The notes under the pieces: model-generated
Seen by the model: the letters and a program-made list of their open reading frames with translations, nothing else
Databases searched by the model: none
What the model was told of the DNA's origin: nothing
Assembly (NCBI GenBank): GCA_001823605.1
Contig: MHUZ01000034.1
Span: 38,589 to 102,588 of the forward strand
DNA length: 64,000 bases
From: Candidatus Yonathbacteria bacterium RIFOXYD1_FULL_52_36
GTDB taxonomy: Bacteria; Patescibacteriota; Minisyncoccia; Phycocordibacterales; UBA1539_B
Direction of reading: 5' to 3'
Shown here: positions 1,935 through 60,226 of the stretch, in pieces
How positions within the stretch are numbered: position 1 is the first letter of the stretch
Layout: each line of letters begins with the position of its first letter
Translations under genes and position numbers: made by a program

Positions 1935-4694
1935 TTATCCCGTGCGATACTTCCGCATGATCTCTGCTTCCACTTCTTCGCGCGGACGGCCATAGAGGAG
2001 CGCGGAGAGCTCTTTTAATTTTGGCACGATCTCCGGATTTCCGGGCGTTGGCGGGAGCGTCGCAATGTTGAACGGGCGCGATGGTACGCCATTCACGAGC
2101 ATCTTTACGTACGCGTTCCTGTTCTCAACCTTGATGATATCTTGCGCAGTGAACGTCGGCTTGAATTCTTCCTGCAAGAACTCGGCATCTTCGGTACCCA
2201 CACGGAACACCACTTTTGAGCCAACGTTGCCGAAGACCGCATTCCTAATATTATCTTCGAGCTGTTTAATATACTGGTGCGCGACCGTAAGCGAGAGGCG
2301 GTACTTACGTGCCTCAGAGAGGATAGTCGCGATCGAATCGGTGGTCACATTCTGAAATTCGTCTATATAAAGATAGAAGTCCGCCGGCTTCTCTCCGCGC
2401 GCGAGCATATCGGTTCGCGAAAGCGCTGCCATGAGGATCTTCCCCACCAGCACAAGACCGATCAAGTTCGAGTTGATCTCTCCCAAGCGCCCCTTGGAAA
2501 GATTCACCAAAAAGATCTTTTTCTGGTCCATGATATCGCGGAAATTGAACGCTGAACGCTCCTGCGCAATGATCGGGCGCATCACGTCATTCGTGATGAA
2601 CACGTCAAACTTGTTGGTGACATAGGGAACATAGTTGGCAAGTCCCTGATCGCCGGTCGTTTTTTCGGCATTATCCCAGAACTGCTTAATGATAGGGTTC
2701 TTACAGCGTGAAAGCTTTAGGTCGCGAAATGCCTTATCCGAGAGTACTCGTCCGATCTCAAGGAGCGTGTTCCCCGAGGAGGGGTCATCCATCACAAGGA
2801 GTGCTGAGTTTCTAAAATATTGCTCAAATGCCGGTCCACCGGCAGTCTTCATATCAAACAATTTGTTAAAGATCGCCAAAAGCTCGTTCGCCACAAAGAT
2901 CTTCTGTTCGGGGAACCGTACATCGTATTCAAGCATATTGAGTCCCATAGGGCGCTCGGTCGCTGCCGGATCAAAATAAATGACGTCATTAATGCGCTCG
3001 CGGGGAATATTCGCCAAAATATCCTCAATATCATTCCCGTGAGGATCAATGAAACACACACCATCGCCGTTTTTGATATCCTGCACGATCATGTTCTTAA
3101 GGAGCGTGGTTTTACCGGTTCCGGTCTGACCGATAACGTACATGTGGCGCACACGATCCTCCTCTGTCATTCGCACCTCGGTTTCCTGCCCCTGGTAGCG
3201 GTTCACGCCGAGCACCACGCCTTGGTTCGGTACATCCACGGGCGCTGGCGCATTCTTGCCTGACACCGCCTGTTTTAATTTGGGCGCATCAAGACGCGTG
3301 ACCGGATAATGAAAGATCGTAGTGAGCTCTTTAGTCGAAAGCTCCATTACCTCTTCAGGAGCGTAGGTGCGAAAAATAAATTCGCGCAACAGTTTTATTC
3401 TTTGAGCGCCTTCAACGTTCTTAAACGCGATCCGATTTCCCACTCCCGTATCAGCAAACTGTTGGAACGCTGACTCGACCTCAAGAAGGATCGCGCGGGC
3501 GCGTACATCATCAGCAGCAGATGCCACTACGCGAATGTTCGTATCCACAACCGGTGTTGAGGTCTTTTTCTCGATCGCTTCGATCAAGCGCTGGTTGACT
3601 TCTTTTTCTGCTGACCGCTTCTCGCCTTCATCTTTTTTCGACGCACCAAAGAAGAGCTCCTTTGCCGATTCTGCAAATTCGTGCGCAACACCTGCTAGTT
3701 CACTTTGAAGCGCCTCTTTGAGCGGGATTCCTTTCTTGATACGCTCTAAAACCTTTCTGTACTCATTGGTGCGAATATGAGAGACCGGAGAAACCACGAT
3801 CTGCACCGCCGCACCCTCCCCTTCACGCTTCATTTTTGAAAAGACGCTCAGCAATACCTGGAGCGGATCATACTGAAATGTATCGTACGTCTTGAGTGGC
3901 AAAATATCTTCTTCCGCAAGGCGCGCATACCCACCAACCGTTGCTCCACTATCTTCAAAAGGATTGTAGTCTTCTCTGTGCTCCCGAAGAGTCACCCCGG
4001 GGAAGATCGCGCGGACATGCTTCTCGAACAAGTCCGCACGGTCGATCGGCACTGCGGTATAAAAAATGATCTCATCGCTGTAATTTGAAAGTGCGATCTC
4101 GATCGTAAAGTGCACATCGGAAACTCCCCCTTTGGGATCTTTGGTGAGTGAGAGCATGCCGGCATAGAATTGCTCCATCTTGGCGACAAGCTCGGCAAAC
4201 GTACGCTTTTCATCGTCATCATCCTCATTCTGAAGCGTCACTTCATACAGCTTCATGCGGAGAGCACCAAAAAGCCTGCCTCCCTGCTCGAGACCGGGAA
4301 TCGGCAACTGTTCTCCCACATACTGAACCAAGAAACGATGGAAGTCATCTTCAAGGTGGGGGTTTTTTGACCGCTCGGCCATGACCAGCGCAGTCTTGAG
4401 CCCTTTCGAGCGCATCACCTCAATGAGTTCGTCCACCCGTCCTTCGTGTGATTCCGACATATTGAGCACTTCGCGCTCAATATGATCAATCGGGTCAAGG
4501 TTCCCCTGTTTGTAGACAGCGATCTCTTCACGGATCATCCGTTCTCTCCCCTCCTGTGAACTAGGTTTCTCGGGCAGGGTGATCTGCTCACGCTCGGCAA
4601 CCTTGGCGCGCAAATACGCGATCTCCTCTTCAGGAGTTTTGAAGTGCGTTCCGGAAAATGTTTCCGGCGCCTTGGTGCCGAATGAAATGTTCAT
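1935..4694 (-). CDS. TraG/TraD/VirD4(TrwB)-family coupling-protein-like P-loop ATPase (FtsK/HerA superfamily), cytoplasmic with no N-terminal TM segment
   Basis: Walker A GQTGTGKTT followed by FIDPHGN (DPKG-like motif of VirD4/TrwB). Walker B LYIDEFQNV. 919 aa. No hydrophobic N-terminus. Confidence 0.6.
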   Translation of the reverse strand: MNISFGTKAPETFSGTHFKTPEEEIAYLRAKVAEREQITLPEKPSSQEGRERMIREEIAVYKQGNLDPIDHIEREVLNMSESHEGRVDELIEVMRSKGLKTALVMAERSKNPHLEDDFHRFLVQYVGEQLPIPGLEQGGRLFGALRMKLYEVTLQNEDDDDEKRTFAELVAKMEQFYAGMLSLTKDPKGGVSDVHFTIEIALSNYSDEIIFYTAVPIDRADLFEKHVRAIFPGVTLREHREDYNPFEDSGATVGGYARLAEEDILPLKTYDTFQYDPLQVLLSVFSKMKREGEGAAVQIVVSPVSHIRTNEYRKVLERIKKGIPLKEALQSELAGVAHEFAESAKELFFGASKKDEGEKRSAEKEVNQRLIEAIEKKTSTPVVDTNIRVVASAADDVRARAILLEVESAFQQFADTGVGNRIAFKNVEGAQRIKLLREFIFRTYAPEEVMELSTKELTTIFHYPVTRLDAPKLKQAVSGKNAPAPVDVPNQGVVLGVNRYQGQETEVRMTEEDRVRHMYVIGQTGTGKTTLLKNMIVQDIKNGDGVCFIDPHGNDIEDILANIPRERINDVIYFDPAATERPMGLNMLEYDVRFPEQKIFVANELLAIFNKLFDMKTAGGPAFEQYFRNSALLVMDDPSSGNTLLEIGRVLSDKAFRDLKLSRCKNPIIKQFWDNAEKTTGDQGLANYVPYVTNKFDVFITNDVMRPIIAQERSAFNFRDIMDQKKIFLVNLSKGRLGEINSNLIGLVLVGKILMAALSRTDMLARGEKPADFYLYIDEFQNVTTDSIATILSEARKYRLSLTVAHQYIKQLEDNIRNAVFGNVGSKVVFRVGTEDAEFLQEEFKPTFTAQDIIKVENRNAYVKMLVNGVPSRPFNIATLPPTPGNPEIVPKLKELSALLYGRPREEVEAEIMRKYRTG

Positions 4695-7976: not shown

Positions 7977-7986
7977 AGTGATTTCG

Positions 7987-8700
7987 TTATGCCTTCACTG
8001 CTTCTTCCGGAGCTACTTCTTCTGCCGGTGCTGCTACAACCTTCTCTCCGCCCTTGGGGCGCTGCATCTGAGAAAGTGCCTCGATTGCGGCGCGTGCAAT
8101 ATTCAATTTATTTTTGCTTCCTGAGAAGATCTTTGCCCCAACGTCCGTAATACCCGCGAGGTCAAGCACCACACGAACTGCGCTTCCTGCGACAATACCG
8201 CGTCCCGGAGCAGGCATGATGCGTACGACCGCGCTTGAGTACTTTGCCTCAACTTCGTGAGGGATAGAGCTCTGCTTGGTGAGTGCGATCTTTATTGCGT
8301 TCTTTTTTGCACTGCGCATCGCCTTTTCGATCGCCGAGGCGGTGTCGCCGGACTTTCCGGTTCCTACACCAACCTTACCCTTGCGGTCTCCCGCAACAAG
8401 TGAAACCGCAAAACTGAAGCGGCGGCCTCCGGCGACCACACGGGCCACACGGCGTACATCGATCGTCTTGTGATCGTACTCGGGTCGAGCGCGCTCAAAA
8501 CCACCACGGCGCTCACCGCGCTTTCCGCCCGGCTTACCACCGCCACGCTGAGGACCACCGCGTCCACCACGGTCGCCGCCACGAAAACGGTTACCGCCTG
8601 CGCGTGCACCGTCTCTCGGAGCAGCCTGGGGAGCGGTGGGGGTAGCAGCCGCTGGTGCGACTATCCCTGCCTCGTTCGTTGTTGTAGGTTCTGAAGACAT
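7987..8700 (-). CDS. rpsE: 30S ribosomal protein S5 with a long Gly/Arg/Pro-rich N-terminal extension
   Basis: S5 dsRBD and C-domain (RRFSFAVSLVAGDRKGKVGVGTGKSGDTASAIEKA). About 70-aa low-complexity N-terminus. Confidence 0.85.
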   Translation of the reverse strand: MSSEPTTTNEAGIVAPAAATPTAPQAAPRDGARAGGNRFRGGDRGGRGGPQRGGGKPGGKRGERRGGFERARPEYDHKTIDVRRVARVVAGGRRFSFAVSLVAGDRKGKVGVGTGKSGDTASAIEKAMRSAKKNAIKIALTKQSSIPHEVEAKYSSAVVRIMPAPGRGIVAGSAVRVVLDLAGITDVGAKIFSGSKNKLNIARAAIEALSQMQRPKGGEKVVAAPAEEVAPEEAVKA

Positions 8701-10182: not shown

Positions 10183-10411
10183 AAAAGATTAACTATAGTG
10201 AGGACATCCTATGGGATGCCTTCTTAGGGTGTGCGATATCGCGCAATTTTCCGGCTCTCCCCGTGTCTAACAGGATGAATCGGAACTATGCGGATCACAC
10301 TGATGCTCTTACAAGCACCACGCGATGCTACCAGAAATAGGTGCTTACGTCAATCACGCCCTGGCCGATGGTCCGTGGTGAACACCCGGCCAGGACGCGA
10401 TTGCTTTTGAA

Positions 10412-13770: not shown

Positions 13771-14118
13771 TTATTTCTTCTTCGTGTCAGTTGCGGCAGT
13801 TTTTGCTGCTTTAGCGGCGGTGATCTCGGCCTCTTTCTTCTTCTGCTCGAGTTCCTTCTGCATTTTACCGCCGTGACGAACGAATTTCTTGGTCGGTGAA
13901 AACTCGCCCAAACGGTGCCCGACCATGTCCTCGGTCACCAAAACCTCGATATGATCCTTGCCGTTGTGGACACCAAAGGTAAATCCGACCATTTCAGGTG
14001 CGATCTGGCTTGCACGTGCCCACGTCTTAATAACGCCGCTGGTGCTGGCTTTTTTACCGTCTATTTTCTTAATAAGTTTCGGGTCAATGTAAGGACCCTT
14101 GTGTAGTGATCGTGTCAT
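13771..14118 (-). CDS. rpsS: 30S ribosomal protein S19 with C-terminal extension
   Basis: [12 protein letters not shown]...[17 protein letters not shown]. Confidence 0.9.
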
Positions 14119-14280
14119 AGGAAATTTGCGCCTCGGCCCCGGGAAAATGTACCCGATGGGTCAAATGGGCACAAAAAGAAAAACGAGCCCGGAAAGAGCT
14201 TCAGGTCATATTAGCAGAAACGAAGAGAATGTCAACCGCGTAAGGTTTCTCTGGTGACGATCTGTGGCACGTGAGTTACA

Positions 14281-14318
14281 CCAGAAAACGGCTCACCCAG
14301 GGGTGAGCCGTTTTCTGG
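14281..14318. repeat. AACGGCTCA-family palindromic terminator (copy a), 17-bp stem: CCAGAAAACGGCTCACC-CAGG-GGTGAGCCGTTTTCTGG
   Basis: Read directly from the sequence. Lies 3' of the 794-aa gene and upstream of rpsS. Confidence 0.85.
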
Positions 14319-14374
14319 GCCGTTTCGAGCCTTCTCTCTCGACATGTAGGCCGGGAGCCTTACGGCTTCTACCC

Positions 14375-16759
14375 CTACCGCGGCCTGATCGCGCCAATAT
14401 TAAATTCGCTCGTGTCGGTTGCACTGATACAGCCAGGGTCGGCATCGGCTGGGGTGCCCGCACCGTTAAAATCAGTGTAGCCGTCACTATCGTTGTCGAT
14501 ACCATCACTACAAACTACGTCAGTGAATTGCGTCGAGGAGTCATTTTCGTCATCATCGCTGGAGTCCACACAGCCGGGATCAACCAAAGAGGCGTCGCCG
14601 GTGCCATCATAGTCAATGAATCCGTCGCCGTCATTGTCAGTGTTGTCTACGCACTGCACAGCCACGCAGTACTCCCCATCCCAAACATTACTGCTCCCAC
14701 ACATGGCGGCGGGATAGATCTCAAGGAGCACATCAGTACCATTGCGTGCTTGGATCGTATTCTCCCCGTAGACGATCTCTTTAATTTGCCCAACAGAAGA
14801 CCCTGTCACATACAGTTCTCCTGTTGTTTGGTTGTAGAAGTTCGGAGAAAGCGCGTCGGTAACAGTTCCCACAACGTACGACCAGCACGTACTCATTCCA
14901 CGCGCGATAGTGCAATCGTACGCAGAAAGCGTTGCACTGGGCACAATGGGTGTAGTCGATTCGGTCACGACCACGTCTACCCAGGGGCTGCAGTTGTCAT
15001 TTTCGCTTGTTTCCGGGATGCTGTTGGAACTATCGGCACACGCGCGCATGGAGTAGGTGCCTGCAGTCGGGAATATGTATGAAATACTGCTCACCGCACT
15101 GGTACCACTTGCAAGCGCTGCCCTAGATATCAAGAACTCCTGGATCGTACCCAAACCGTCACTCTGGCTTGCCAGCTCAATCTTGTTCACGAAAGAATTA
15201 CCTGTCGATGCGGCTCCCTCGTTCGTGATGGTCGCAGAGAATGCCGTTGTCTTGCCGGCGAACGCAGTAGTTGGAGCTACTGAAGAAGCCTTGAGGTTGG
15301 ACATGGAGACCGTGACATTTCCCCATGTACTACAATTATTTGATTCATCGGACTCGGCAATGACTCCTCCGTCCGTGCTTGATGACTTGTCAGCACACGC
15401 GCGCATGGAATAGGTGCCTGCTGTCGGGAATGTGTATGCTTTATCTTTTGGGGAAACCGACCCCACATTACTGAGTACGGGGTGCGTCGATGCAGAAAGG
15501 TCTGTGATTCCTCCGTTGCCATCTGCAAGACTTGCCACCTGGAAAAAATACGGGAAGCTTGTGTCGGTGCTTGCGGTACCGTTGTTGTAGATAATTGCTG
15601 AGAATGTCGTGGAGACGCCCGCAATAACGTTTGTGGGCATGGAATACATATTCGCAGTAAGGTCAGGGATACCCAGCCCGCCCGTGACTGTGACCGTGTC
15701 TGATGCGGTTAAGACCGTACCGTCTGTTGCAATACACTGAACAGTAAATACCGTCTTGTCATAAAGAGGAGTCACGGTTGTGTCGAATCCTGCAGTTGCG
15801 TTGCCGGTTTGAAAACCAGAGTCTGCGCCAGAGATCACACTGCACGATGTCGTGTCTCCAGAATCCCAACCCACACTAATGACGTCACCCTTGGAAACAG
15901 TCTTGTACACTGGACCATACGTGAACGCAGTAACATCAACGAACCTCACTTCCGGAGAGACGTACGGGGGCGGAGCCTCACGCTTTTGAATCCTACCTAC
16001 ATCAAAGTTGTTGTCTGCTCCTCCTACAATATACACATTACCTAGGTCATCTGGCTCCATAGAGTATGGTCCATACCAAAGTTGTGCCGCCTCTCCTTGT
16101 ACGGTGTATGGTCCGTAAGTATATTTCGTCATCCATTCCCCTTTGGGAATAGAGTATATTACCCTATTAACAACTCCTTCAGTTGCAGCCTCAATTTGAA
16201 GGTAACTAGGCCAGCTCGAGTTAAAACCTGTATACGTACTGTTCTGCTCAAGAGACAAACTAGTGCGTGAATAGTTGTCATAGACATTACGCATCTTGGT
16301 ATTGTTATCTCCAGCTAAATCATTTACGTCGAAATCTGGACTGGGATCAACATAAACGGAGACAAGACCAAGGTCACTTTTCCTCCTAATCTCCCACGAA
16401 CCTCCCCACATAGATATTTTTATATTATCACTACCATCAAAAGACACATACCTAACTCCATAGGGAGCTACACTTGTTACCTTTGAAAGCAGTGCTCCAC
16501 TACTAGGTGACCACTTTTGAACCAGAGGGGTTGTTACTGTGTAAAAAAAGTAACCGTATCTATTTCTTCCTGTATATACACCAGTTGCATCTGCAGCAGC
16601 GTCAGAAAAATTATCCCCCGCTGAGTCGATTGACCAAATTAAGTCCCCAAAGGCTGCCGATGCCTGCGTGTACCCCGTAAAAAATATCCCTGCGGCAAGC
16701 AGTATGCTTCCTACTGCTGAAAAAATCTGCTTCTGTAGGTAAGTAGTGTTCATGGTCAT
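14375..16759 (-). CDS. large secreted surface protein with beta-propeller-like repeats, two CARDB-like domains, MopE/TSP3-like Ca or metal-binding repeats (CxDGxDNDxDG...DPGC) and a conserved C-terminal tail ...DPGCISATDTSEFNIGAIRPR
   Basis: N-terminal signal peptide (MTMNTTYLQKQIFSAVGSILLAAGIFFTGYTQASA). CARDB-like YTFPTAGTYSMRACAD...NNC modules occur twice. The acidic DNDGDG repeats and C-terminal tail are shared with the 56731-60204 protein. Confidence 0.75.
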   Translation of the reverse strand: MTMNTTYLQKQIFSAVGSILLAAGIFFTGYTQASAAFGDLIWSIDSAGDNFSDAAADATGVYTGRNRYGYFFYTVTTPLVQKWSPSSGALLSKVTSVAPYGVRYVSFDGSDNIKISMWGGSWEIRRKSDLGLVSVYVDPSPDFDVNDLAGDNNTKMRNVYDNYSRTSLSLEQNSTYTGFNSSWPSYLQIEAATEGVVNRVIYSIPKGEWMTKYTYGPYTVQGEAAQLWYGPYSMEPDDLGNVYIVGGADNNFDVGRIQKREAPPPYVSPEVRFVDVTAFTYGPVYKTVSKGDVISVGWDSGDTTSCSVISGADSGFQTGNATAGFDTTVTPLYDKTVFTVQCIATDGTVLTASDTVTVTGGLGIPDLTANMYSMPTNVIAGVSTTFSAIIYNNGTASTDTSFPYFFQVASLADGNGGITDLSASTHPVLSNVGSVSPKDKAYTFPTAGTYSMRACADKSSSTDGGVIAESDESNNCSTWGNVTVSMSNLKASSVAPTTAFAGKTTAFSATITNEGAASTGNSFVNKIELASQSDGLGTIQEFLISRAALASGTSAVSSISYIFPTAGTYSMRACADSSNSIPETSENDNCSPWVDVVVTESTTPIVPSATLSAYDCTIARGMSTCWSYVVGTVTDALSPNFYNQTTGELYVTGSSVGQIKEIVYGENTIQARNGTDVLLEIYPAAMCGSSNVWDGEYCVAVQCVDNTDNDGDGFIDYDGTGDASLVDPGCVDSSDDDENDSSTQFTDVVCSDGIDNDSDGYTDFNGAGTPADADPGCISATDTSEFNIGAIRPR

Positions 16760-17511
16760 TAGGGCATTAGGTAAATCTTCGTTGCGTTGAACCTGTTGAT
16801 CGAGTACACATTCCCCTCACCCCAAGCGGTCACCTGCGCTCCCGCCACAATGTCGCTCATTGTTTTTCCTTCCAAAAACTCCGTGGTCGGGGTAATGGTG
16901 ATCGTGTATCGCTTCGTGACATACGGGACAGTGAACGAGCCACTTGATGTATCGAGACTATCCAGCTTTTCTTCATCGGCAACTTCTGTCTCGATAGTCA
17001 ATGTCTTTCCTCTAACACTGAGTACCTTCCCCGCGATCATGTCGCGTTGTGTAACCTCGTTGATGACTTGTGTTTTGAGATCAAAACGCTCCACGGACAG
17101 CGCCGTGGGGTGATCGGTCTCGTAAATACTTGCGGATAGCACGGTTTTAACGATCAAGCCCGTGGTAATCTCATTCTTCATGAAACCAACGTATGATGTC
17201 TCGGGACTGAGGTTGATAGTGATCTCACGGTCAGAAAACTGAAGTGGTGTCCTTTTTCGCACAGACTCCTCAACAGTATCGACGTCCCCAACTTGAGTTT
17301 TTATGGTGATCGTCGTATCGGTAATCGCCACGACCGTGCCTTCGATATGTGTGCCGCTTGCAATGAGCTCCTGACGAACCTGTGCGGTCAATTCTTCAAC
17401 ACCCATGCCTTGGGGTTCTGGAGTGCGCATGAGGATAAATGCGACGGCCACAACGAGAACCATGAGCCCTACAATGAATACACCCGGCCGTTCTTTTATT
17501 TTTTGAAACAT
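16759..17511 (-). CDS. N-terminally membrane-anchored hypothetical protein, translationally coupled (ATGA overlap) to the downstream surface-protein gene
   Basis: Start at MFQKIKERPGVFIVGLMVLVVAVAFIL (one TM helix), followed by a Thr/Val-rich extracytoplasmic region. Confidence 0.6.
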   Translation of the reverse strand: MFQKIKERPGVFIVGLMVLVVAVAFILMRTPEPQGMGVEELTAQVRQELIASGTHIEGTVVAITDTTITIKTQVGDVDTVEESVRKRTPLQFSDREITINLSPETSYVGFMKNEITTGLIVKTVLSASIYETDHPTALSVERFDLKTQVINEVTQRDMIAGKVLSVRGKTLTIETEVADEEKLDSLDTSSGSFTVPYVTKRYTITITPTTEFLEGKTMSDIVAGAQVTAWGEGNVYSINRFNATKIYLMP

Positions 17512-17582
17512 AGAGAAAGCTGATTTGATTATGTATCTATATAGTACCCCGCGCCAAGAGAAGCGCGGGTGTGGATAACAAA

Positions 17583-17612
17583 AAAAACGGCTCACCTGGG
17601 TGAGCCGTTTTT
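17583..17612. repeat. AACGGCTCA-family palindromic terminator (copy b) immediately 3' of rplB
   Basis: AAAAAAAACGGCTCACC-TG-GGTGAGCCGTTTTTTT. Confidence 0.85.
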
Positions 17613-17619
17613 TTGAAAA

Positions 17620-18492
17620 TTAATCGGTGCCTTTTGAGCGCTTGCCGCGCTTTTTGCGGCGAGAAACGATGAGGAGATTTGAATACTTCTTGGGCTTGCG
17701 TGTCTTTACGCCGCCAGTCTTCTTTCCCCATGCAGTCTTAGGATATTTTGTACCACGCGGCTGGCTTCCTTCACCTCCACCGTACGGGTGGTCAACAGGG
17801 TTCATGGCTGTACCACGAACTGTCGGGCGGATACCGAGCCAACGTGAGCGTCCTGCCTTGCCGATCGTGCGAAGTTTGAATTCTTCGTTCGAAACCTCAC
17901 CGATCGATGCCCATGCGGCATCAGGAATGCGGCGCACTTCTGTTGAGGGGAGTTTTACGTGGGTGTAGCCGGCGTCATGTGCAATCACTTCAGCATAGTT
18001 TCCTGCCGAGCGAACGAGACGCGCACCGCCGTTCGGGTGAATTTCAAGATTGTACACGAATGTCCCGACCGGAACATTGCGAAGGAGTGTGCGGTTTCCC
18101 GGAGTGAGGGGTGCTTTTTCTGAAACCAAAAATGACGTGCCGACACTGAGGGCCTTCGGCGCGATCACGTAGCGGCGCTCGCCGTCTGCGTAACACACCA
18201 GCGCAATAAAGCTTGAGCGGTTCGGGTCGTACTCAATAGTCTCAACCTTTGCGGGGATATCACGCTTTGCGTAAAGAAAATCGATCTCGCGATAGAGGCG
18301 CTTGTGTCCACCTCCTTTGTGGCGCACCGTAATGCGACCATCGGCGTTGCGTCCCATAAAACGCTTGCGGCCCTTAGTGAGGGACTTTTTCGGCTCTGAT
18401 GCCGTCAAAACTCCGCGGTACGAGACCGTAGTCATGTGGCGGCGCGACGGTGTTGTTGGTCGATAGCTTTTCATACGCTTATGCAAATTCAA
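17620..18492 (-). CDS. rplB: 50S ribosomal protein L2
   Basis: L2 signature (GRNADGRITVRHKGGGHKRLYR...). Confidence 0.9.
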   Translation of the reverse strand: MNLHKRMKSYRPTTPSRRHMTTVSYRGVLTASEPKKSLTKGRKRFMGRNADGRITVRHKGGGHKRLYREIDFLYAKRDIPAKVETIEYDPNRSSFIALVCYADGERRYVIAPKALSVGTSFLVSEKAPLTPGNRTLLRNVPVGTFVYNLEIHPNGGARLVRSAGNYAEVIAHDAGYTHVKLPSTEVRRIPDAAWASIGEVSNEEFKLRTIGKAGRSRWLGIRPTVRGTAMNPVDHPYGGGEGSQPRGTKYPKTAWGKKTGGVKTRKPKKYSNLLIVSRRKKRGKRSKGTD

Positions 18493-18862
18493 TTACATCG
18501 CCTTTTTTGAGCATTACATATGCCTTGTGAATGGCGGCTTTCTTTCCTCTTTTTCCACGCACGACCACATTCTTTGCGGGCGTATGGACCACGTTGACCG
18601 ATACGGGATCGAATCCGTAGATCTCTTTGATGGCACGCTTGATCTCGATCTTGTTGGAACGAGCATCAACCTCAAATGCGTAAGTATTTTTCTCAGCAAG
18701 GAGCGCTGCCTTTTCGGTGATGCGCGGGCGCTTGATCACTGAGTGTGATGAGCGCGAAGAAACTGCGGGAGATCCTCCCTTAGTATTCCCTCCTGTCTTA
18801 GAAGCTACCGCCTTTTTTGCGGAGCCGGACTTTTTTGTTTTAAGAATATCGGTGAATGCCAT
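18479..18862 (-). CDS. rplW: 50S ribosomal protein L23 with N-terminal extension
   Basis: C-terminal half matches L23 (KRPRITEKAALLAEKNTYAFEVDARSNKIEIKRAIKEIYG). Confidence 0.85.
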   Translation of the reverse strand: MAFTDILKTKKSGSAKKAVASKTGGNTKGGSPAVSSRSSHSVIKRPRITEKAALLAEKNTYAFEVDARSNKIEIKRAIKEIYGFDPVSVNVVHTPAKNVVVRGKRGKKAAIHKAYVMLKKGDVIEFA

Positions 18863-21941: not shown

Positions 21942-22185
21942 AAGAATAATAGGCTGTGAGAAAACGTCGAAAGATGAGTGCGCGAGAACACTCCCTCATC
22001 CCTCGTCGCTTTCCGCGAGCGCAATGAATTAGTTACTAAAAAGAAAAGCACCGGACAGCTCTCCGTTTAAGACAAAAACAAAAAGCGGAATGCACATCCG
22101 ATATGGGGGCTATAGTATCAGAACGCGGGATTAAGTCAAGCGATTATGGGCCGGTCAACCCCTGAGAAACCCTCGGCGGGCAAAA

Positions 22186-22212
22186 AGAAACCCCGCACAG
22201 GGCGGGGTTCGG
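22186..22212 (-). terminator. rho-independent terminator of the 22232-22750 gene
   Basis: CCCCGC-ACAGG-GCGGGG followed by a T-tract on the minus strand. Confidence 0.6.
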
Positions 22213-22231
22213 TTCTTGGCTGAACAAAAGA

Positions 22232-22750
22232 TCAGGGCGTAAGGTCGATAGCCTTGGTCTGATTGCGCGGAATAAGGATCAATGCCCGTTCGCCAGGTTC
22301 ATTGACCCCTTCTTTTGCGGCAAGCCGTGCCAGAAGGTGGTTTGGATTCAGCCGTTCTGACGGAGCGCGAGTGCATGGAACTTCATACACACAGAGATCG
22401 AACCCCGCGAACGGCGATAGGGCATGGAAAAACTCATATCCCGCATCACCACACAAGGTTTTTGCAACATCACGCTCCTTAGAATCACAGTCGGAAAGGT
22501 ATGTGCGAATATGGCTATCCTGCTGGTCGAAATTAGTAAAAAAATCAACCCAGGGAACATATTCCCCTCTGACAAGATCCATCACCCGCTCATAGTAATC
22601 CTCTCGAGTGGTGTTGTTTTTCCGTAAAATGAAAATTTCATCCTCGCGAGAAAACAATGTTTTCTCAGCCATCGCGGCACGGACCATGAGGTATAACGCA
22701 CCCTCACAACGACCTTGCTGATTCAATACCACCATTGCATTCTTTGGCAT
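22232..22750 (-). CDS. hypothetical protein (172 aa), inserted between tuf and fusA
   Basis: Intact ORF with its own terminator. No family recognised from sequence. Confidence 0.5.
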   Translation of the reverse strand: MPKNAMVVLNQQGRCEGALYLMVRAAMAEKTLFSREDEIFILRKNNTTREDYYERVMDLVRGEYVPWVDFFTNFDQQDSHIRTYLSDCDSKERDVAKTLCGDAGYEFFHALSPFAGFDLCVYEVPCTRAPSERLNPNHLLARLAAKEGVNEPGERALILIPRNQTKAIDLTP

Positions 22751-22822
22751 CTCATACGTCCTCCCTTACAAGTTCATGGAATGTACAACAAAAAACTGTC
22801 GCGCAGTGTACAACAAAAAATC

Positions 22823-23305
22823 CTATTGCGCAAGCTTTGCCCCAAAAATCTTATTGTAGAGCCACGATCCAACGCACCAGTGAGTGGTCGCCATAAGCCC
22901 CGCCGCGACAATATAGCCGACCCCAAAGCCATATCCCCAGGTAGTAGCGCCCACAAAAAACGAATACGTGGCACCAATGAGGAACGCTGCGCCAAGGGCG
23001 CACGCAAAGCGCTTCTGAGGCGGTGCAGGCGGGAGCTTCGGCGTTCGAAACAGCTTGTAAAATAAGGTGTTATAGAGGACATCCACTGGCTGTCCTTTTG
23101 GGAAAATAGTCCCCAAAATTCCAAAAATGCTGAGTACCGCAAAGACCTCCCAGCTCCCCAAAACCATACCGACGACGACACCAACACTGCACACTGTCGG
23201 TGTGAACCGGAGTGGTAGATTGAGTCTAATTTTCTCTTCAGTTGAAAACGCTGTATACCCCTGTGCATCAAGATGCGCGCACGTGCGTGGTGAAATTGTG
23301 TTCAT
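22823..23305 (-). CDS. hypothetical polytopic membrane protein (DUF4395-like)
   Basis: 160-aa ORF with 4 predicted TM helices. The alternative overlapping frame 22774-23271 was judged less protein-like. Confidence 0.45.
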   Translation of the reverse strand: MNTISPRTCAHLDAQGYTAFSTEEKIRLNLPLRFTPTVCSVGVVVGMVLGSWEVFAVLSIFGILGTIFPKGQPVDVLYNTLFYKLFRTPKLPPAPPQKRFACALGAAFLIGATYSFFVGATTWGYGFGVGYIVAAGLMATTHWCVGSWLYNKIFGAKLAQ

Positions 23306-23368
23306 TGTTTAATTGTAACAGAGAACCCGCGCAAGTGCGCGGGTTTTGAACTACGGCTTCTGTAATTA

Positions 23369-23540
23369 TTACTTCAGCACTTTCTGAGGAATATTCTCCG
23401 GAGGGATTTCCCCGAGAATCTCTCTTTTGAGCTTCCGAAGTTGCGCTATCGTATGATTGCATGCGCTGAGGGCACTCTGAAGCTCTGAGCGCACGTCGTG
23501 GCCATTCTTAGGGGTAGTAGAGTTTCGTGACACACCCATC
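23369..23540 (-). CDS. small hypothetical protein (57 aa) with strong RBS
   Basis: AAGGAGGT 6-8 nt upstream of ATG at 23540. Reads MGVSRNSTTPKNGHDVRSELQSALSACNHTIAQLRKLKREILGEIPPENIPQKVLK. Confidence 0.45.
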
Positions 23541-23642
23541 GAGAAACCTCCTTTCGTAATGATCCTCACCCAGCGTACCATGCGGTAACGAAAAAACCAC
23601 ACCTTTTCAGATGTGGTTTTTTCGTTCTAAGGAACAAGATGA

Positions 23643-27787: not shown

Positions 27788-27820
27788 AATCAAACGGCTC
27801 ACCCAAGGTGAGCCGTTTGA
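27788..27820. repeat. AACGGCTCA-family palindromic terminator (copy c) 3' of rpmB
   Basis: ATCAAACGGCTCACC-CAA-GGTGAGCCGTTTGAT. Confidence 0.85.
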
Positions 27821-44125: not shown

Positions 44126-45325
44126 TTAATTTTTCTTATTTAAGGACGATGGAACAAAACCGTTTTTCTCCAGGACATAAAATATACCCCGTAGTAAATA
44201 ATTATTGATAAAACCAATCGTGTACACCCTGCTCTTCCCGGGCACAGGACGAAGCATTTCCTTATCTTTAAGTCGCTTGAGAATGCGCGAGCGCTGAACG
44301 GGTGATTCTTTTCCGATGATCACATCGAGGTCTGATGATTTGACGCTCATTGATTTGCTTTTAACCAAAGCGGTTAAAATGCTGAACTCACGTTCAGTAA
44401 TAAGTTTTCGTTCAAGCGCATACGACAAAGACGGTATCAGAATTGTCTCGGTTATATACTTCAGATCAAGCAAGCGATCAATTTTTTCGATCTCCTCTCT
44501 CAGTCCCTCAAGAACGTACGCACACCACCGTAACACCTGTTCTTGCTCACCAGTATCCGCAAGTGCCAAGTTTGCATAGTATTCATTTCGATCCATGCAA
44601 AAGATCGCTGTCGGGTTGAGAATTCTTCCGTTATGGACCTTGAAGCCCTGCTTAATGAGCAGTGCGTAGGTAAACATACGAATTAAACGTCCGTTGCCGT
44701 TATCAAACGGGTGAATCCACGCCATACGATGATGAGAGAGTGCCGTGACCAAGAGGTCGTTCTGGGGACTAGTGTCTGCGTTCACAAAAGCAATAAGCTC
44801 CTCAAAGTAATCCGGCACTTTCACCATATCGGGTGGGATATGTGATGAACCTTGAATTCCGACATTGATCGGTCGCAGACCACCTGGGTAACGAGACCCT
44901 TCTCCGGATGGCGGTGGAGTAAGACCATCCACAATGATCTTGTGCAATTCTGAAATGTGGGCACGCGTGATTATTCCACCCTCCGTAATGGTCTCTTCAA
45001 TGAATTTAATTGCTCGCTCAATGTTAAAAATCTCTCGAATGGATTCCTCTTTGGTATCTTTCGGAACCTGGTCAATGATCTTTTCGACGAATTCTGCAAG
45101 AGTTGTATGATTCCCTTCAATACGCGCAGATCCGAGGCTCTCCATCAGCTGAAAAATATCTTTCAGCTGAAAGAAAATGTACGGCGGCACTGGTCCGCCA
45201 AGCTTTTTTACGCGCAACTTTTCAAGCTCGACAATGGTGCTGGCGAGCTCCGACCCCCACGCCGGTTCGTATATTTTTAGAGGGATTTCTTTGAATTCCC
45301 CTTTATTTACATCTTTAGATTCCAT
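44126..45325 (-). CDS. Fic/DOC family protein (AMPylase-type) with inhibitory helix motif
   Basis: Fic core HPFDNGNGRLIRM. N-terminal SARIEGN matches the (S/T)xxxE(G/N) inhibitory motif. Lower GC than the core genome. Confidence 0.85.
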   Translation of the reverse strand: MESKDVNKGEFKEIPLKIYEPAWGSELASTIVELEKLRVKKLGGPVPPYIFFQLKDIFQLMESLGSARIEGNHTTLAEFVEKIIDQVPKDTKEESIREIFNIERAIKFIEETITEGGIITRAHISELHKIIVDGLTPPPSGEGSRYPGGLRPINVGIQGSSHIPPDMVKVPDYFEELIAFVNADTSPQNDLLVTALSHHRMAWIHPFDNGNGRLIRMFTYALLIKQGFKVHNGRILNPTAIFCMDRNEYYANLALADTGEQEQVLRWCAYVLEGLREEIEKIDRLLDLKYITETILIPSLSYALERKLITEREFSILTALVKSKSMSVKSSDLDVIIGKESPVQRSRILKRLKDKEMLRPVPGKSRVYTIGFINNYLLRGIFYVLEKNGFVPSSLNKKN

Positions 45326-45432: not shown

Positions 45433-45477
45433 AACAAACGGCTCAGCGTAGCTGAGCCGTTTGTTGAGCCGTTTAAT
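45433..45477. repeat. AACGGCTCA palindrome (copy d) with an extra right half-site. Its 26-bp core is identical to copy e.
   Basis: AACAAACGGCTCAGC-GTA-GCTGAGCCGTTTGTT then GAGCCGTTTAAT. Confidence 0.85.
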
Positions 45478-47842: not shown

Positions 47843-50593
47843 CTAAGTTACTGCTACCATCTTTCTTTTTACGGAAGTTTTCTTGTTTTCGCTTGCAGTG
47901 TATTTGCAATACAGTTCAAACAGGAACTCGATTCTCTCCTCTTTATTCGAAAACTTTTTGCCGTAGCAGGCGTCAACAGCGCGGTCGAGGTCGGTGTGGG
48001 CTTTGACCAGGTCGGGTGGCATTGTGTTGGGGTCATAGAGATCAGCGAGAGAACTCTCGGGAAACCGAGCTCGCGCATCGAGTACTCTTTGCGCACACTC
48101 CTCTACTTTTTTCCTGTGCTCGTCCGACACACTCTCGGGCCATGGAAAATTATTGTAAACGATATCTTTTGAGTAGCGATACCGACTTTCAAGCCGTCCG
48201 CAGGTGTATCTCACCCATGTCATATGCATAAGTGACTGCAAGATACCAAGGTGAAACAAGGTCGCCCCAGACCCGATAAGGCAGAGGTTGCTCGTAATAA
48301 CACTCTCATCCATAAAACCCAAGGGGATATAAGCCCTCCTTTCCGATGAGACACTGGGAATAAGCAGATATCGCCCATTTGGAAAATTTTCTACATGGAA
48401 TCGTGTCGGCGTTTCCGCAAGTTTTTGCGTTGGTGGACTCACGCTATCTAATCGAAGTTTTCGCACAGCTTCAATGCGCTTTAATACTTCAGGCATTTCA
48501 CGTAATTCATGGGGCGGAGTATCTCCAAGCCACAAACACCAACGCTCATACCCATTCAAGAACTCATCTGCTCCGATCCACTTACGAAACAATTTCTCAC
48601 TTTTTGGCTCATGTTTTATAAATTCATTCTTTTCCTCGGGTGTAAAAAGGTAATTCCCACCATCGATCGGCTTGTTCCCAATTCCGATATTTGGAACATC
48701 TTCCACGATCGGCTTCGAGCGTGATTCCACAAACACGTCTTCGCCTGCAACAAGATATGCATTAATATGCTCCACCTCTTTTTCCTTCGGCTCGCTTTTT
48801 ATCGTCTCATATTCGTAGAGATATTTCTTTGGAGTATCCACGCACGCAAAGCCAACAATCACGCAGTACACCGCCGCCACCCCTGGCGCGTCATTGTTCC
48901 ACTTGAAAGTCTGGTGCGCAAAATGAATAATGATGCCGTATTTTTCTTTGAGACGCTTCCACAGAATACCCACTTGCTCACCTTGGCAGATCGAGTTGGT
49001 GGACACAAACGCAGTTTTGATATTGGTGCCAACCATATACCTTGACGCCTTTTCATACCACGCTGTTACAAAATCGAGATTACCTGCGCCTTTTGCATTA
49101 TCAAAGATATTAAGAAATGCTTCTTTTTGTTCTTTTTCCATTAACCGTGCTCCAACAAACGGCGGATTGCCAAGAATATACGAGAGTTTGTGTTTTGGCA
49201 CAACCTCTTCCCAATCTTTTGTAAGCGCATTGTCGTTCACGATCGTCGCGGGCTCACGAAGCGGGATGCGTGCGTACGGCTTGCCAAACTTCTCTGACAA
49301 AAGCTGGTTCATTTGATGATCGGCGAGATACATCGCTACGCGGGCGATCAGTGCGGGAAATTCTTCGATCTCTATTCCGTAGAACTGATTGACGTTGATG
49401 CGCGAAATGTCTTCAACCCCCAATATTGCTATCTGGTCGTCTTTTTTCTTTCGCAAAAGAATTTCGAGTTCCAGTTTTCGCAGTTCACGGTACGCAACAA
49501 CGAGAAAGTTTCCACACCCGCACGCAGGATCAAGAAACGTGAGGTTTGCAAGCTTATTGTGAAACGCATCGAGCTTCTTGGCGTCATACTTCACCTGATC
49601 GAATTCAACATGCAATTCATCAAGAAAGAGCGGTTGAATGACCTTCAAAATATTCTTTTCGGAAGTGTAGTGCGCACCAAGTTGCCTGCGTGTGTTCTCA
49701 TCCATCATCCCTTGGAACAGGGATCCGAAGATTGATGCAGATATCTGTGACCAATCAAAACTACAACATTTCAATAACTTGAGATACGCGGTTGCGTCCA
49801 AGGAAACAGGCGCGATCTGCTCTGCGAAAATACCGCCGTTGATGTATCCGAACATCATCAACTGCTCGTCTAAATTTGTCTGCCTCTTTTCCTTTGGCGT
49901 ATTGAGGATGTGGAAAATTTGCATCAGATGAATCCCCAGATCGGACCCGTCGTGATTGATTCGATTTTCTACGTATGAGCGAAAATGATTTTTAGGGAAA
50001 ATACCTGTGTCGTCGGCAAAAAGACAAAAGAGGATGCGGATGAGAAAAACTTCGAGGTCGTGCCCACTGTACCCCGTCTTGGCAAGTTCGTTATGGAAAT
50101 CAGCCATCAACTTCACGGCTTCAATGCTCACCTCCTCTTCTTTTTCGTAGGCGCGGACAGTGTATCCAGATATAAACCCAAAGAGATCTATGTTTTTGTG
50201 GAGCTCTTTAAGTAAAAATTCTTCTTGAGTGTTCTTGTCCAGATCGTACAATCGTATTTTTTCAAAGTCAGAAACGACTACATAGCGCGGAAGTTCCACG
50301 TCTTTCAACCCGGGGAAATAATCCTTCGCTTGTGTGTACGCCTTGTCCAAATTTTTGCCGCGAGTTTTGTGTTCCGCAAGCATCACGCCTTTCCATAGAA
50401 CATCAATGAATCCCTGTGCCCCACCCTGCTTTTTTACAAAGTGCTCAAAGGAAGCGACGCGTCGGCGTGGAACGCCAAACACCTCAAAGAAGCCGTCCCA
50501 AAAGCTTTTTGCCTCTGCGTCTTCGTTGGATTCTTGCTCCCATTCGTGCGCAAAGGTGATTGCGCGATTTCGGATTTCGTTGATGCTTATCAT
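47843..50593 (-). CDS. MmeI-family type IIL/IIG restriction-modification enzyme (fused endonuclease, N6-adenine methyltransferase and TRD)
   Basis: N-terminus MISINEIRNRAITFAHEWEQESNEDAEAKSFWDGFFEVFGVPRRRVASFEHFVKK closely parallels MmeI. Methyltransferase motif IV LGNPPFVGA. 916 aa. Confidence 0.85.
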   Translation of the reverse strand: MISINEIRNRAITFAHEWEQESNEDAEAKSFWDGFFEVFGVPRRRVASFEHFVKKQGGAQGFIDVLWKGVMLAEHKTRGKNLDKAYTQAKDYFPGLKDVELPRYVVVSDFEKIRLYDLDKNTQEEFLLKELHKNIDLFGFISGYTVRAYEKEEEVSIEAVKLMADFHNELAKTGYSGHDLEVFLIRILFCLFADDTGIFPKNHFRSYVENRINHDGSDLGIHLMQIFHILNTPKEKRQTNLDEQLMMFGYINGGIFAEQIAPVSLDATAYLKLLKCCSFDWSQISASIFGSLFQGMMDENTRRQLGAHYTSEKNILKVIQPLFLDELHVEFDQVKYDAKKLDAFHNKLANLTFLDPACGCGNFLVVAYRELRKLELEILLRKKKDDQIAILGVEDISRINVNQFYGIEIEEFPALIARVAMYLADHQMNQLLSEKFGKPYARIPLREPATIVNDNALTKDWEEVVPKHKLSYILGNPPFVGARLMEKEQKEAFLNIFDNAKGAGNLDFVTAWYEKASRYMVGTNIKTAFVSTNSICQGEQVGILWKRLKEKYGIIIHFAHQTFKWNNDAPGVAAVYCVIVGFACVDTPKKYLYEYETIKSEPKEKEVEHINAYLVAGEDVFVESRSKPIVEDVPNIGIGNKPIDGGNYLFTPEEKNEFIKHEPKSEKLFRKWIGADEFLNGYERWCLWLGDTPPHELREMPEVLKRIEAVRKLRLDSVSPPTQKLAETPTRFHVENFPNGRYLLIPSVSSERRAYIPLGFMDESVITSNLCLIGSGATLFHLGILQSLMHMTWVRYTCGRLESRYRYSKDIVYNNFPWPESVSDEHRKKVEECAQRVLDARARFPESSLADLYDPNTMPPDLVKAHTDLDRAVDACYGKKFSNKEERIEFLFELYCKYTASENKKTSVKRKMVAVT

Positions 50594-50676: not shown

Positions 50677-50718
50677 GAAAACGGCTCAGGGAACGGCTCA
50701 GCGTAGCTGAGCCGTTTA
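50677..50718. repeat. AACGGCTCA palindrome (copy e) with an extra left half-site. Mirror of copy d.
   Basis: AAAACGGCTCAGGG then AACGGCTCAGC-GTA-GCTGAGCCGTTTAA. Confidence 0.85.
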
Positions 50719-56667: not shown

Positions 56668-56710
56668 AACAAAACAAACGGCTCAGCATTGCTGAGCCGT
56701 TTGTTTTGTT
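56668..56710. repeat. AACGGCTCA-family palindromic terminator (copy f) shared by convergent clpP and the giant surface-protein gene
   Basis: AACAAAACAAACGGCTCAGC-ATT-GCTGAGCCGTTTGTTTTGTT. Confidence 0.85.
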
Positions 56711-60204: not shown

Positions 60205-60226
60205 GGAGTGATTTGTACTATTCATA

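Follow-up and report, generated by a model that had tools for sequence, protein, structure and literature searches.

In a 64,000-nucleotide stretch of the genome of Candidatus Yonathbacteria bacterium RIFOXYD1_FULL_52_36, a groundwater bacterium (assembly GCA_001823605.1, contig MHUZ01000034.1, positions 38,589 to 102,588 of the forward strand; hereafter the window), the ribosomal-protein genes rplB (L2) and rpsS (S19) were found to be separated by a two-gene cassette for putative surface proteins. Analysis of this locus and of its counterparts in related Parcubacteria/Paceibacteria indicated that the L2-S19 junction is probably an operon border turned gene-turnover hot spot, which in the window holds a fast-changing surface-protein module, rather than a site that couples the expression of the cassette to that of the ribosomal genes. 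A first-pass annotation of the same DNA, made from the sequence alone, had regarded the cassette as interrupting a universally conserved junction. On the contrary, no junction of the cluster proved more variable than L2-S19 among the related Paceibacteria, and insertion there is therefore common in the clade and not exceptional.

On the minus strand of the window, the genes were arranged in the order S12-S7-fusA-(three open reading frames, ORFs)-tuf-S10-L3-L4-L23-L2-(250 aa)-(794 aa)-S19-L22-S3-L16-L29-S17-L14-L24-L5-S14-S8-L6-L18-S5-L15-SecY-adk-map. L23 was located at 18479-18862, rplB at 17620-18435 (Pfam Ribosomal_L2_N, E = 1e-33; Ribosomal_L2_C, E = 3e-47), and rpsS at 13771-14118 (Ribosomal_S19, E = 1e-32), all on the minus strand. 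The interval 17620-18492 previously assigned to rplB is correct as an ORF but probably not as a gene, the likely start being the ATG at 18435 (271 aa), as in public assemblies. From the L2 stop to the S19 start, 3,501 bp were measured, in agreement with the separation of about 3.5 kb by a two-gene insert that had been noticed at first; the window does not contain a contiguous canonical S10 operon, in which L2 and S19 would be adjacent within tens of bp and without an internal terminator or promoter. The first gene of the insert, 108 bp after L2, is that of a predicted membrane-anchored protein (16759-17511, minus strand; ATG at 17511), which is 250 and not 251 aa in length, and the second is that of a predicted secreted mosaic protein of 794 aa (14375-16759, minus strand). 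The start codon of the latter shares one base (16759) with the stop codon of the former, giving TAATG and not, as had been read, ATGA.

The putative transcription signals of the window are consistent with two separate ribosomal units. Directly after rplB, AAAAAAACGGCUCACC-CAG-GUGAGCCGUUUUUUUU (17580-17614, minus strand) forms a stable GC-rich hairpin (-22.2 kcal/mol, z -7.3) with an 8-U tail, i.e., a predicted intrinsic terminator. After the 794-aa gene, a second terminator-like hairpin of the same AACGGCTCA family (14278-14320, minus strand; -34 kcal/mol, z -6.1), which is a longer version of the rplB palindrome, marks the right insert boundary; its U-run UUUUCUGG lies partly within the extended stem, which would render it weaker as a terminator. 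These two hairpins agree with the prediction that rplB and the 794-aa gene each end in a palindromic terminator. Likewise, a separate rpsS promoter had been expected within 14119-14280, and the top-scoring sigma-70-like site of an 18-kb scan, TTGACA-16-(TGc)TAATAT with 10/12 matches and an extended -10 TG, was predicted there (14235-14208, minus strand) and is conserved in relatives. It is followed from about +1 by the hairpin AGCUC-UUUCC-GGGCU and a U-rich tract (14174-14207, minus strand), hereafter the rpsS leader. Judging from these signals, rplB is the predicted last gene of the transcription unit tuf-S10-L3-L4-L23-L2, and rpsS is the predicted first gene of the next one, S19-L22-S3-L16-L29-S17-L14-L24-L5.

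Species-representative genomes were scanned with L2, which yielded 80 loci from Nomura-, Yonath-, Vogel-, and Taylorbacteria-type Paceibacteria. Among the 57 loci with S19 downstream of L2, the two genes lay more than 300 bp apart in 37 and more than 1 kb apart in 21; by size class, the gap was 30 bp or less in 3 loci, 70-260 bp in 16, 300-1,000 bp in 17, and above 1 kb in 21, with a maximum of 8.1 kb. S19 was not found downstream of L2 in the 23 further loci, 7 of which had the full 10 kb flank. In the control junctions L3-L4, L4-L23, L22-S3, S19-L22, S3-L16, S17-L14, L14-L24, and S8-L6, by contrast, there was not a single gap above 300 bp. When the gap sizes were placed on a tree of L3-L4-L23-L2, they flipped between sister taxa (162 versus 1,546 bp, and 146 versus 1,665 bp), which implied repeated gain and loss. 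Empty sites of 100-250 bp consisted of exactly a terminator, a promoter, and a leader, and 55 of 81 related loci carried a terminator-like hairpin no more than 120 nt past the L2 stop. The presence of these three predicted elements at L2-S19 thus pointed to a genuine operon border in the clade.

Upstream of S19 in the relatives, the promoter TTGAC(A/T)-N16-(TTTGc)TAnnAT was matched at 9/12 positions or more in 46 of 50 loci, as compared with 24% of shuffled sequences, and at 10/12 or more in 64% of loci versus 4.5% of shuffles, the -10 box ending about 40 nt before the S19 ATG. The leader hairpin with its U-run occurred 6-9 nt past the -10 box, at about +1, with the consensus AAGCUCG-UUAG-GAGCUU followed by UUUUGUUUA. 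A covariance model (R1) built from 40 relatives without the window matched the window at 14213-14174 (25.4 bits, E = 0.006), and this was its sole significant match in the 64 kb; in 1.25 Mb of related loci, 37 of the 48 matches to the leader motif were situated within 130 nt upstream of S19. The promoter-leader module was defined as a -10 box, a hairpin AGCUC-N3-7-GAGCU at about +1, and a U-rich tract upstream of rpsS. Promoter, hairpin, and U-run in combination were detected upstream of S19 in 43/54 cases, of tuf in 18/61, of fusA in 16/57, of S14 in 6/31, and of L3 in 4/25, and upstream of 0/17 other cluster genes. According to these matches, no other predicted transcription start within the cluster is as consistent in the clade as that of S19.

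The loop of the leader varied from 3 to 7 nt, a range that fits a hairpin in RNA better than an operator in double-stranded DNA, and the stem paired at 83% in register versus at most 54% when slid, while its core pairs hardly varied. Such a leader could serve as an attenuator, a ribosomal-protein binding site, or a 5' stabiliser. Neither the window nor seven related loci had an Rfam match that reached the gathering threshold, and an E-value scan of the rpsS leader region returned the palindrome alone, matched to enterobacterial small-RNA terminators. No rRNA was found in the window or the related loci, and no tRNA in the window or in 30 related loci. In the searchable literature, there was no report of an S19 leader or of an rplB-rpsS interruption in candidate phyla radiation (CPR) bacteria.

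The 5' region of the cassette forms the left insert boundary and contains a putative promoter (17512-17579, minus strand): GTTATCCACACC at 17579-17568, which includes the DnaA-box consensus TTATCCACA, is followed by the -10-like boxes TACTAT and CATAAT; a sigma-70-like site there, TTGGCG-18-CATAAT at 17557-17528, is weak (9/12). The same left edge, namely, a terminator T-run and then the element GTTATCCACA, was shared by the window, the co-occurring strain L091/L092, and the loci L093 and L101, and in L093 the GTTATCCACA cassette unit follows another gene of the family with the C-terminal end ...IRPR and not L2. This 10-mer, GTTATCCACA, lay 21-29 nt upstream of -10-like boxes (about 22 nt at the cassette left edge), preceded cargo genes in L019 and L021, and stood before a -10-like box elsewhere in L025; the sites were 17568-17579 in the window, L019:11189, L021:17158, L025:7401, L093:84, and L101:528, and about 10 further exact copies were present in the 1.25 Mb of related loci. 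GTTATCCACA may be an activator site or a DnaA-type site of -35-less promoters. DnaA boxes allowing one mismatch were not enriched in the window (13 matches versus 11.2 expected).

Both insert genes appear to encode envelope or secreted proteins, as the first-pass annotation had suggested. The 250-aa protein carries K/R residues and then a 20-residue hydrophobic helix, and in its AlphaFold2 (AF2) model (predicted local distance difference test, pLDDT, 77) the helix at residues 9-29, itself at low pLDDT, is followed by two barrels (55-142 and 158-248) that are small and OB-like, resembling DUF5666, to which there was a weak Pfam match. The protein is predicted to be of the type II membrane kind, its barrels lying outside the cell. 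A Foldseek search against the PDB returned generic OB-fold (oligonucleotide/oligosaccharide-binding fold) matches alone, with template-modelling (TM) scores of about 0.22, and a metagenome scan with an alignment of this protein retrieved nothing, so that close relatives seem absent from that collection.

The 794-aa protein comprises a predicted signal peptide (K-rich n-region, hydrophobic h-region, and ASA-AF c-region), an orphan N-terminal part of about 230 aa, an Ig-like module (about 265-360), two CARDB domains (about 366-590; PF07705, E = 8e-20, 71.3 bits versus a gathering cut-off of 22.7), and a C-terminal part with a further beta-rich region, two Cys/Asp-rich repeats, and the end ...NIGAIRPR. 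Of the domains originally listed for it, CARDB was thus confirmed, but a beta-propeller (residues 36-267) and Ca-binding repeats of the TSP3/MopE-like kind (residues 674-794) had no Pfam match even at E = 10, a threshold at which four sub-regions likewise gave nothing relevant; CxDxxDNDxDGxxD...DPGC repeats that resemble Ca-binding repeats are visible in the sequence. The protein had no full-length homologue and no match among PDB sequences, and its N-terminus had no relatives among 1.84e9 representatives, in which the Ig-like module alone found any. P0018 (796 aa), considered as a full-length homologue, was rejected as sharing only this Ig-like module, and a single-sequence AF2 model was discarded as unusable (pLDDT 32).

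A paralogous two-gene module was located elsewhere in the window (56731-60931, minus strand), consisting of the gene of a Cys-rich protein of 234 aa with a transmembrane anchor (60227-60931) and then that of an 1189-aa protein, which has PKD, a Vgb-lyase-like propeller, CARDB, and the end ...IRPR and is followed by the palindrome at 56677-56701. The C-terminal 285 aa of the 794-aa protein were 39% identical to this paralogue. The large proteins of the family have otherwise diverged, but all end in ...(F)NIG(A/S/T)IRPR at the stop, and even the nucleotides of this end are conserved, ATCAG(G/A)CCGCGGTAG (14375-14400 and 56731-56760 in the window; L093:1-27; L101:3530-3555). The ...IRPR end may act as a C-terminal signal for sorting or anchoring, or may mark a junction of recombination. 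GC content and GC content at third codon positions (GC3) of the insert were native, and a foreign origin by composition was rejected on this test.

As compared with strain L091/L092, the window was identical in L2 (100%), whereas the 250-aa protein was 82% and the N-terminus of the 794-aa protein 96% identical. The ratios of nonsynonymous to synonymous polymorphism (pN/pS) in this comparison were 0.25 for the 250-aa gene, 0.14 for the 794-aa gene, and 0 for L2; therefore, both are real, selected genes, of which the 250-aa gene evolves fastest. Three lineages with S19 about 87% identical, one of them Yonathbacteria RIFCSPHIGHO2_01_FULL_51_10, have empty sites of 210-241 bp that already hold the promoter and leader. 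In the closest relative, L101 from an unrelated study (L2 96%, S19 96%, and S3 95% identical), the rpsS promoter is nearly identical to that of the window and the slot is occupied by a cassette of 257 and 726 aa, whose small protein is only 28% identical to that of the window. Its large protein aligned with the 794-aa protein in the C-terminal third alone (40%) and, more closely, with the 1189-aa paralogue in three segments (53%, 49%, and 33%). Such a divergent cassette between flanks of 95-96% identity argues for replacement or shuffling among family members and not for in-place divergence. Wide occurrence of the insertion in relatives, which had been left as a possibility at first, was accordingly found for the use of the site but not for this cassette, which is restricted to the lineage of the window and the relatives closest to it.

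The ORFs in the gaps of the other relatives were mostly unrelated between species, with small clusters inherited within subclades, such as a diacylglycerol (DAG) kinase in one seven-species clade. Their Pfam assignments included DAG kinase, pseudopilins, ComEC, glycosyltransferases, orotidine monophosphate (OMP) decarboxylase, superoxide dismutase, serine hydroxymethyltransferase, and PKD-/CARDB-type proteins. N-terminal hydrophobic segments were as frequent in the cargo as in the background (30% each); since the cargo was thus not enriched for proteins that are secreted or anchored, a specific recruitment of surface genes to the site was rejected. A PADLOC search of the cargo yielded domain-level cross-matches alone (MBL and protease) and no evidence of defence islands. 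As a core-flanked interval with varying accessory genes and rapid turnover, L2-S19 corresponds to a gene-turnover hot spot in the sense of Oliveira et al. (2017).

In the scenario that we favour, the str-S10-spc supercluster of Parcubacteria/Paceibacteria would have been cut into units at fusA-tuf, L2-S19, and L5-S14, and in one subclade also at S10-L3. At L2-S19, the upstream unit would usually end in an intrinsic terminator and the downstream unit would start at the conserved sigma-70-type promoter with its hairpin and U-tract; the terminator-promoter DNA would not be needed for ribosomal-protein expression and would therefore tolerate insertions, and this tolerant interval would have become a turnover hot spot between two of the most conserved genes of the genome. 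In the window lineage, the slot would have been filled after divergence from the sister species with the empty site, the filler being a native two-gene surface module, i.e., the anchored OB-fold protein and the CARDB ...IRPR protein, with its own GTTATCCACA 5' region and terminator. This module is kept by purifying selection but changes very fast, and in the nearest relative other family members would have taken its place. As for the insertion itself, the favoured route is recombination, either of one paralogous cassette with another or at the terminator palindromes that recur in the genome; DNA uptake, for which the ribosomal genes would serve as homology arms, may have assisted it. The anatomy of the locus, the pattern across the clade, the empty and filled sites, the selection, and the paralogy come from the data, whereas the activity of promoters and terminators, the part played by the leader hairpin, the surface position of the proteins, and the way of insertion are predicted or proposed.

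Alternative explanations were weighed against this scenario. The window is derived from a metagenome and carries repeated palindromes at both junctions, features that would fit a chimera formed at 14.2 and 17.6 kb during assembly or binning; however, the probability of such an artefact is practically negligible. The exact 794-aa protein was found on at least 17 public contigs from different Rifle samples, 7 of the 10 contigs examined spanned the identical L2-to-S19 junction, and the contigs with the 794-aa protein originated from four pipelines (ANAN16 scaffolds of the IDBA type, MEGAHIT k141, JGI, and Logan), so that the same junctions recurred across assemblies from several samples and the insert, as initially assumed, is genuine. 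Moreover, the diverged strain L091/L092 and the sister species L101, from other data sets, keep the L2-cassette or cassette-S19 links. Six contigs compared with the reference L001, including L007, were 99.6-100% identical over the aligned region; L007 was dismissed as a variant allele of the 250-aa gene, its sole difference being a run of scaffold Ns. Both insert genes are annotated as hypothetical in Candidatus Yonathbacteria bacterium RIFOXYC1_FULL_52_10 (Parcubacteria group). A recent horizontal acquisition through a mobile element targeting the site was judged improbable as well. It would accord with the two copies of the AACGGCTCACC...GGTGAGCCGTT palindrome (about 24 bp) that bracket the insert, with the absence of the insert from three sister lineages, and with the GTTATCCACA-to-terminator unit standing in another context in L093. 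Yet neither insert protein contains an integrase, transposase, or relaxase domain (Pfam: CARDB and the weak DUF5666 alone), the composition is native, a paralogue with the same C-terminus and terminator is present elsewhere in the genome, and the palindrome is shared by unrelated genes, while L101 uses other terminators. The AACGGCTCA palindrome, which has the form AAACGGCTCA(C/G)C...G(G/C)TGAGCCGTTT, was over-represented (22 matches versus 4.4 expected); the six full palindromes of the window (14287-14312, 17586-17609, 27793-27817, 45437-45461, 50692-50716, and 56677-56701) close no fewer than six genes unrelated to one another, and isolated half-sites are found in other places. Its position after genes as unrelated as those of an MmeI-type restriction-modification enzyme and a Fic protein therefore marks it as the putative general terminator of this genome.

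The first-pass annotation had further proposed that the cassette is embedded for co-transcription with, and retention by, the most highly expressed region of the chromosome, which would involve read-through from rplB. Although the cassette runs in the direction of the operon, like 30 of the 40 cargo ORFs in relatives, lies only a short spacer away from L2, and has a predicted promoter of only 9/12, expression coupling is contradicted by the strong predicted rplB terminator (-22 kcal/mol, 8 U), the second hairpin, and the separate conserved 5' region of the cassette, which travels to non-ribosomal contexts (L093). In addition, rpsS has its own conserved predicted promoter, and the cargo in relatives is arbitrary and often lost. 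We thus consider this coupling unlikely. A ribosome- or RNA-related role of the cassette, by which its position would be functional, could be read from the tandem OB fold of the 250-aa protein, which resembles S1, single-stranded DNA-binding protein, and uS17 and was matched by Foldseek to RNA-/DNA-binding OB-fold proteins, and from a site between ribosomal-protein genes. It is nevertheless highly improbable: the TM-scores indicate a generic fold alone, the N-terminal signal-anchor should put the barrels outside the cell, the partner is a CARDB protein with a signal peptide, and the site is empty in sister species.

Several points weigh against the reading of L2-S19 as an operon border turned hot spot. 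Promoters, terminators, and unit boundaries are sequence predictions alone. The weak cassette promoter would permit some read-through from rplB, and a second terminator upstream of the S19 promoter was present in 8 of the 34 cargo-bearing relatives, so that insulation is not universal. The near-invariant stem of the leader gave weak covariation (term -0.11 kcal/mol), and no recombinase or mobile-element gene was found, which bears on the mechanism of insertion. Finally, the breadth of the survey corresponds to the 80 nearest species representatives, with L2 66-73% identical.

The locus can be compared with several known systems. Inter-operon insertions in the translation-gene cluster have been described in Gammaproteobacteria and Bacilli as insertion followed by disconnection (Brandis and colleagues; PMC8046335, PMC6735719). 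The two cases are alike in that a few unrelated genes sit at a transcription-unit border and that the flanks are later fully apart in some lineages. However, those events occurred at canonical borders (rpoBC-str and str-S10) and were rare, with no mention of rplB or rpsS in that account, whereas the window border lies inside the S10 operon of E. coli/B. subtilis, is clade-wide, and is furnished with a dedicated promoter and leader and repeated turnover. Hot spots of horizontal gene transfer that lie between core genes of the chromosome (Oliveira et al., 2017; PMC5635113) similarly have one core-flanked interval with different, fast-turning accessory genes across related genomes. Unlike in those hot spots, the flanks are here ribosomal-protein genes within the most conserved gene cluster, no mobile-element genes were seen, and, in the genus of the window, cargo is exchanged among paralogues of one surface-protein family.

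With regard to the leader, the S10 leader of E. coli mediates attenuation by L4. A candidate L2 r-leader was reported upstream of rplB-rpsS-rplV-rpsC in Alphaproteobacteria (Eckert and Weinberg, 2020; PMC7247131). The rpsS element shares with r-leaders the character of a conserved, putatively structured 5' element in a unit of the S10 cluster, and its hairpin with U-run resembles an attenuator, but it stands upstream of rpsS instead of rplB or rpsJ, consists of merely a 5-7 bp hairpin at the extreme 5' end, and has no Rfam match. It is not among the published r-leader candidates, the nearest being the above Alphaproteobacteria L2 leader. As to the cargo, large beta-rich repeat proteins have been noted in Parcubacteria (Nelson and Stegen, 2015; PMC4508563). 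The 794-aa protein is similar to such adhesin-like CARDB proteins in its predicted signal peptide, Ig-like/CARDB beta-sandwiches, strain variability, and paralogues, and differs from them in its orphan N-terminus, OB-fold partner, and ...IRPR C-terminus. New here are the borders L2-S19 and L5-S14 inside the classical S10/spc operons, their clade-wide nature, the predicted rpsS promoter-leader, and the paralogue swapping.

The S10-spc block is treated as nearly immutable, and the 16 ribosomal proteins encoded there in synteny serve as the standard set of single-scaffold markers when CPR genomes are binned and placed in phylogenies. A class of Parcubacteria nevertheless breaks this block at fixed points, which are loaded with variable and sometimes strain-hypervariable genes. 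Contig breaks and marker loss are therefore predicted at L2-S19, L5-S14, and fusA-tuf; about 11 of the 80 loci ended within 3 kb after L2. It would be operon borders, not gene identity, that set where the cluster tolerates insertions, which extends the Brandis model to a new lineage and new borders. Furthermore, the rpsS promoter-leader is a candidate cis-regulatory element in organisms whose regulation is almost unknown, and the rplB-rpsS locus should be amplifiable by conserved primers, offering a way to track surface-protein variation in uncultured epibionts. A more far-reaching combination of these elements is conceivable, and we regard it as rather doubtful. In it, the Paceibacteria cluster would be rewired into at least four independently transcribed modules; the new rpsS leader would autoregulate or stabilise the S19-L5 unit, whose classical regulators, L4 and S8, both came to lie in other units; the borders would be recombination-anchored slots that swap strain-variable surface-protein paralogues by transformation with ribosomal homology arms; and the DnaA-box-like GTTATCCACA would control the cargo promoters.

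The L5-S14 spacer, the second break point found across the clade and empty in the window (229 bp; 10183-10411, minus strand), contains the promoter-like TTGACG-17-TAGCAT at 10353-10325 and a leader of about 140 nt; this junction exceeded 300 bp in 19 of 34 related loci (maximum 4.3 kb), whereas S14-S8 was always tight. In L029 and L045, L2-S19 and L5-S14 were both tight. The fusA-tuf break point (21942-23642, minus strand) holds three ORFs of 77 aa, 160 aa (DUF4395), and 172 aa, and exceeded 300 bp in 32 of 39 related loci. The predicted tuf promoter, TTGACT-16-TACTAT (22139-22112, minus strand), is followed by a short hairpin and TTTTTGTTTTT. In the sister Yonathbacteria L095/L096, a DUF4395 gene and a 179-aa ORF were likewise located upstream of tuf. 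In a Vogelbacteria-like subclade, a promoter and an AAGCUC...GAGCU hairpin were present upstream of L3 (L014:8291-8335, L032:8200-8244, L025:8062-8106, and L082:141-187); since S10-L3 is expanded there by 286-886 bp and L3 has its own module, S10 appears to be split from L3 in these genomes.

Directly downstream of map, the window carries the gene of a TraG/VirD4-like coupling protein (919 aa; 1935-4694; T4SS-DNA_transf, TrwB_AAD_bind, and TraG-D_C) at the position where infA-L36-S13-S11-S4-rpoA-L17 would normally continue, so that the alpha-operon part of the cluster stands apart here. Between S5 (7987-8700) and L15 (7527-7976) lie only 10 bp (7977-7986) and no L30 gene, an arrangement that agrees with the reported lack of L30 in CPR bacteria.

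Two of the full palindromes mentioned above, of the AACGGCTCAG type, follow the gene of an MmeI-family type IIL restriction-modification enzyme with all five MmeI domains (47843-50593) and that of a Fic/DOC protein (44126-45325). By analogy, one sequence reused as a terminator recalls DNA-uptake sequences, inverted pairs of which are found in terminators of competent bacteria.

Nomurabacteria-like loci contained L2-S19 spacers of 400-900 bp without long ORFs, which were mostly GC-richer than their loci (L047:10802-11206, L035:9750-10235, L073:10802-11330, L078:6820-7327, and L052:10402-10860). Each resembles a mini transcription unit, with a promoter of the TGTTATAAT type, a leader that forms a long hairpin, an ORF preceded by a Shine-Dalgarno sequence, and its own terminator. 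The predicted proteins of 41-71 aa are usually very basic, are not conserved between loci, and had no Pfam match above the curated cut-off; the spacers gave no Rfam or tRNA match, and that of L073 folds at z = -3.0. The spacers may encode small proteins or an undescribed RNA.

Some variation was also seen around the leaders. Those of S14 (L043 and L048) and fusA (L079 and L039) have the rpsS-type architecture with different stems. An inverted-repeat element of about 70-85 nt, of the gtagtaGAAAATGGCAT...ATGCCtTTTTCactac type, lies between the -10 box and the rpsS leader hairpin in L101 (3600-3700) and upstream of the rpsS promoter in L096 (9810-9880), and may be a small mobile palindromic element. 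In L097 and L099, the rpsS 5' untranslated region contains three tandem GGGCGCAACACGTTCGCA repeats.

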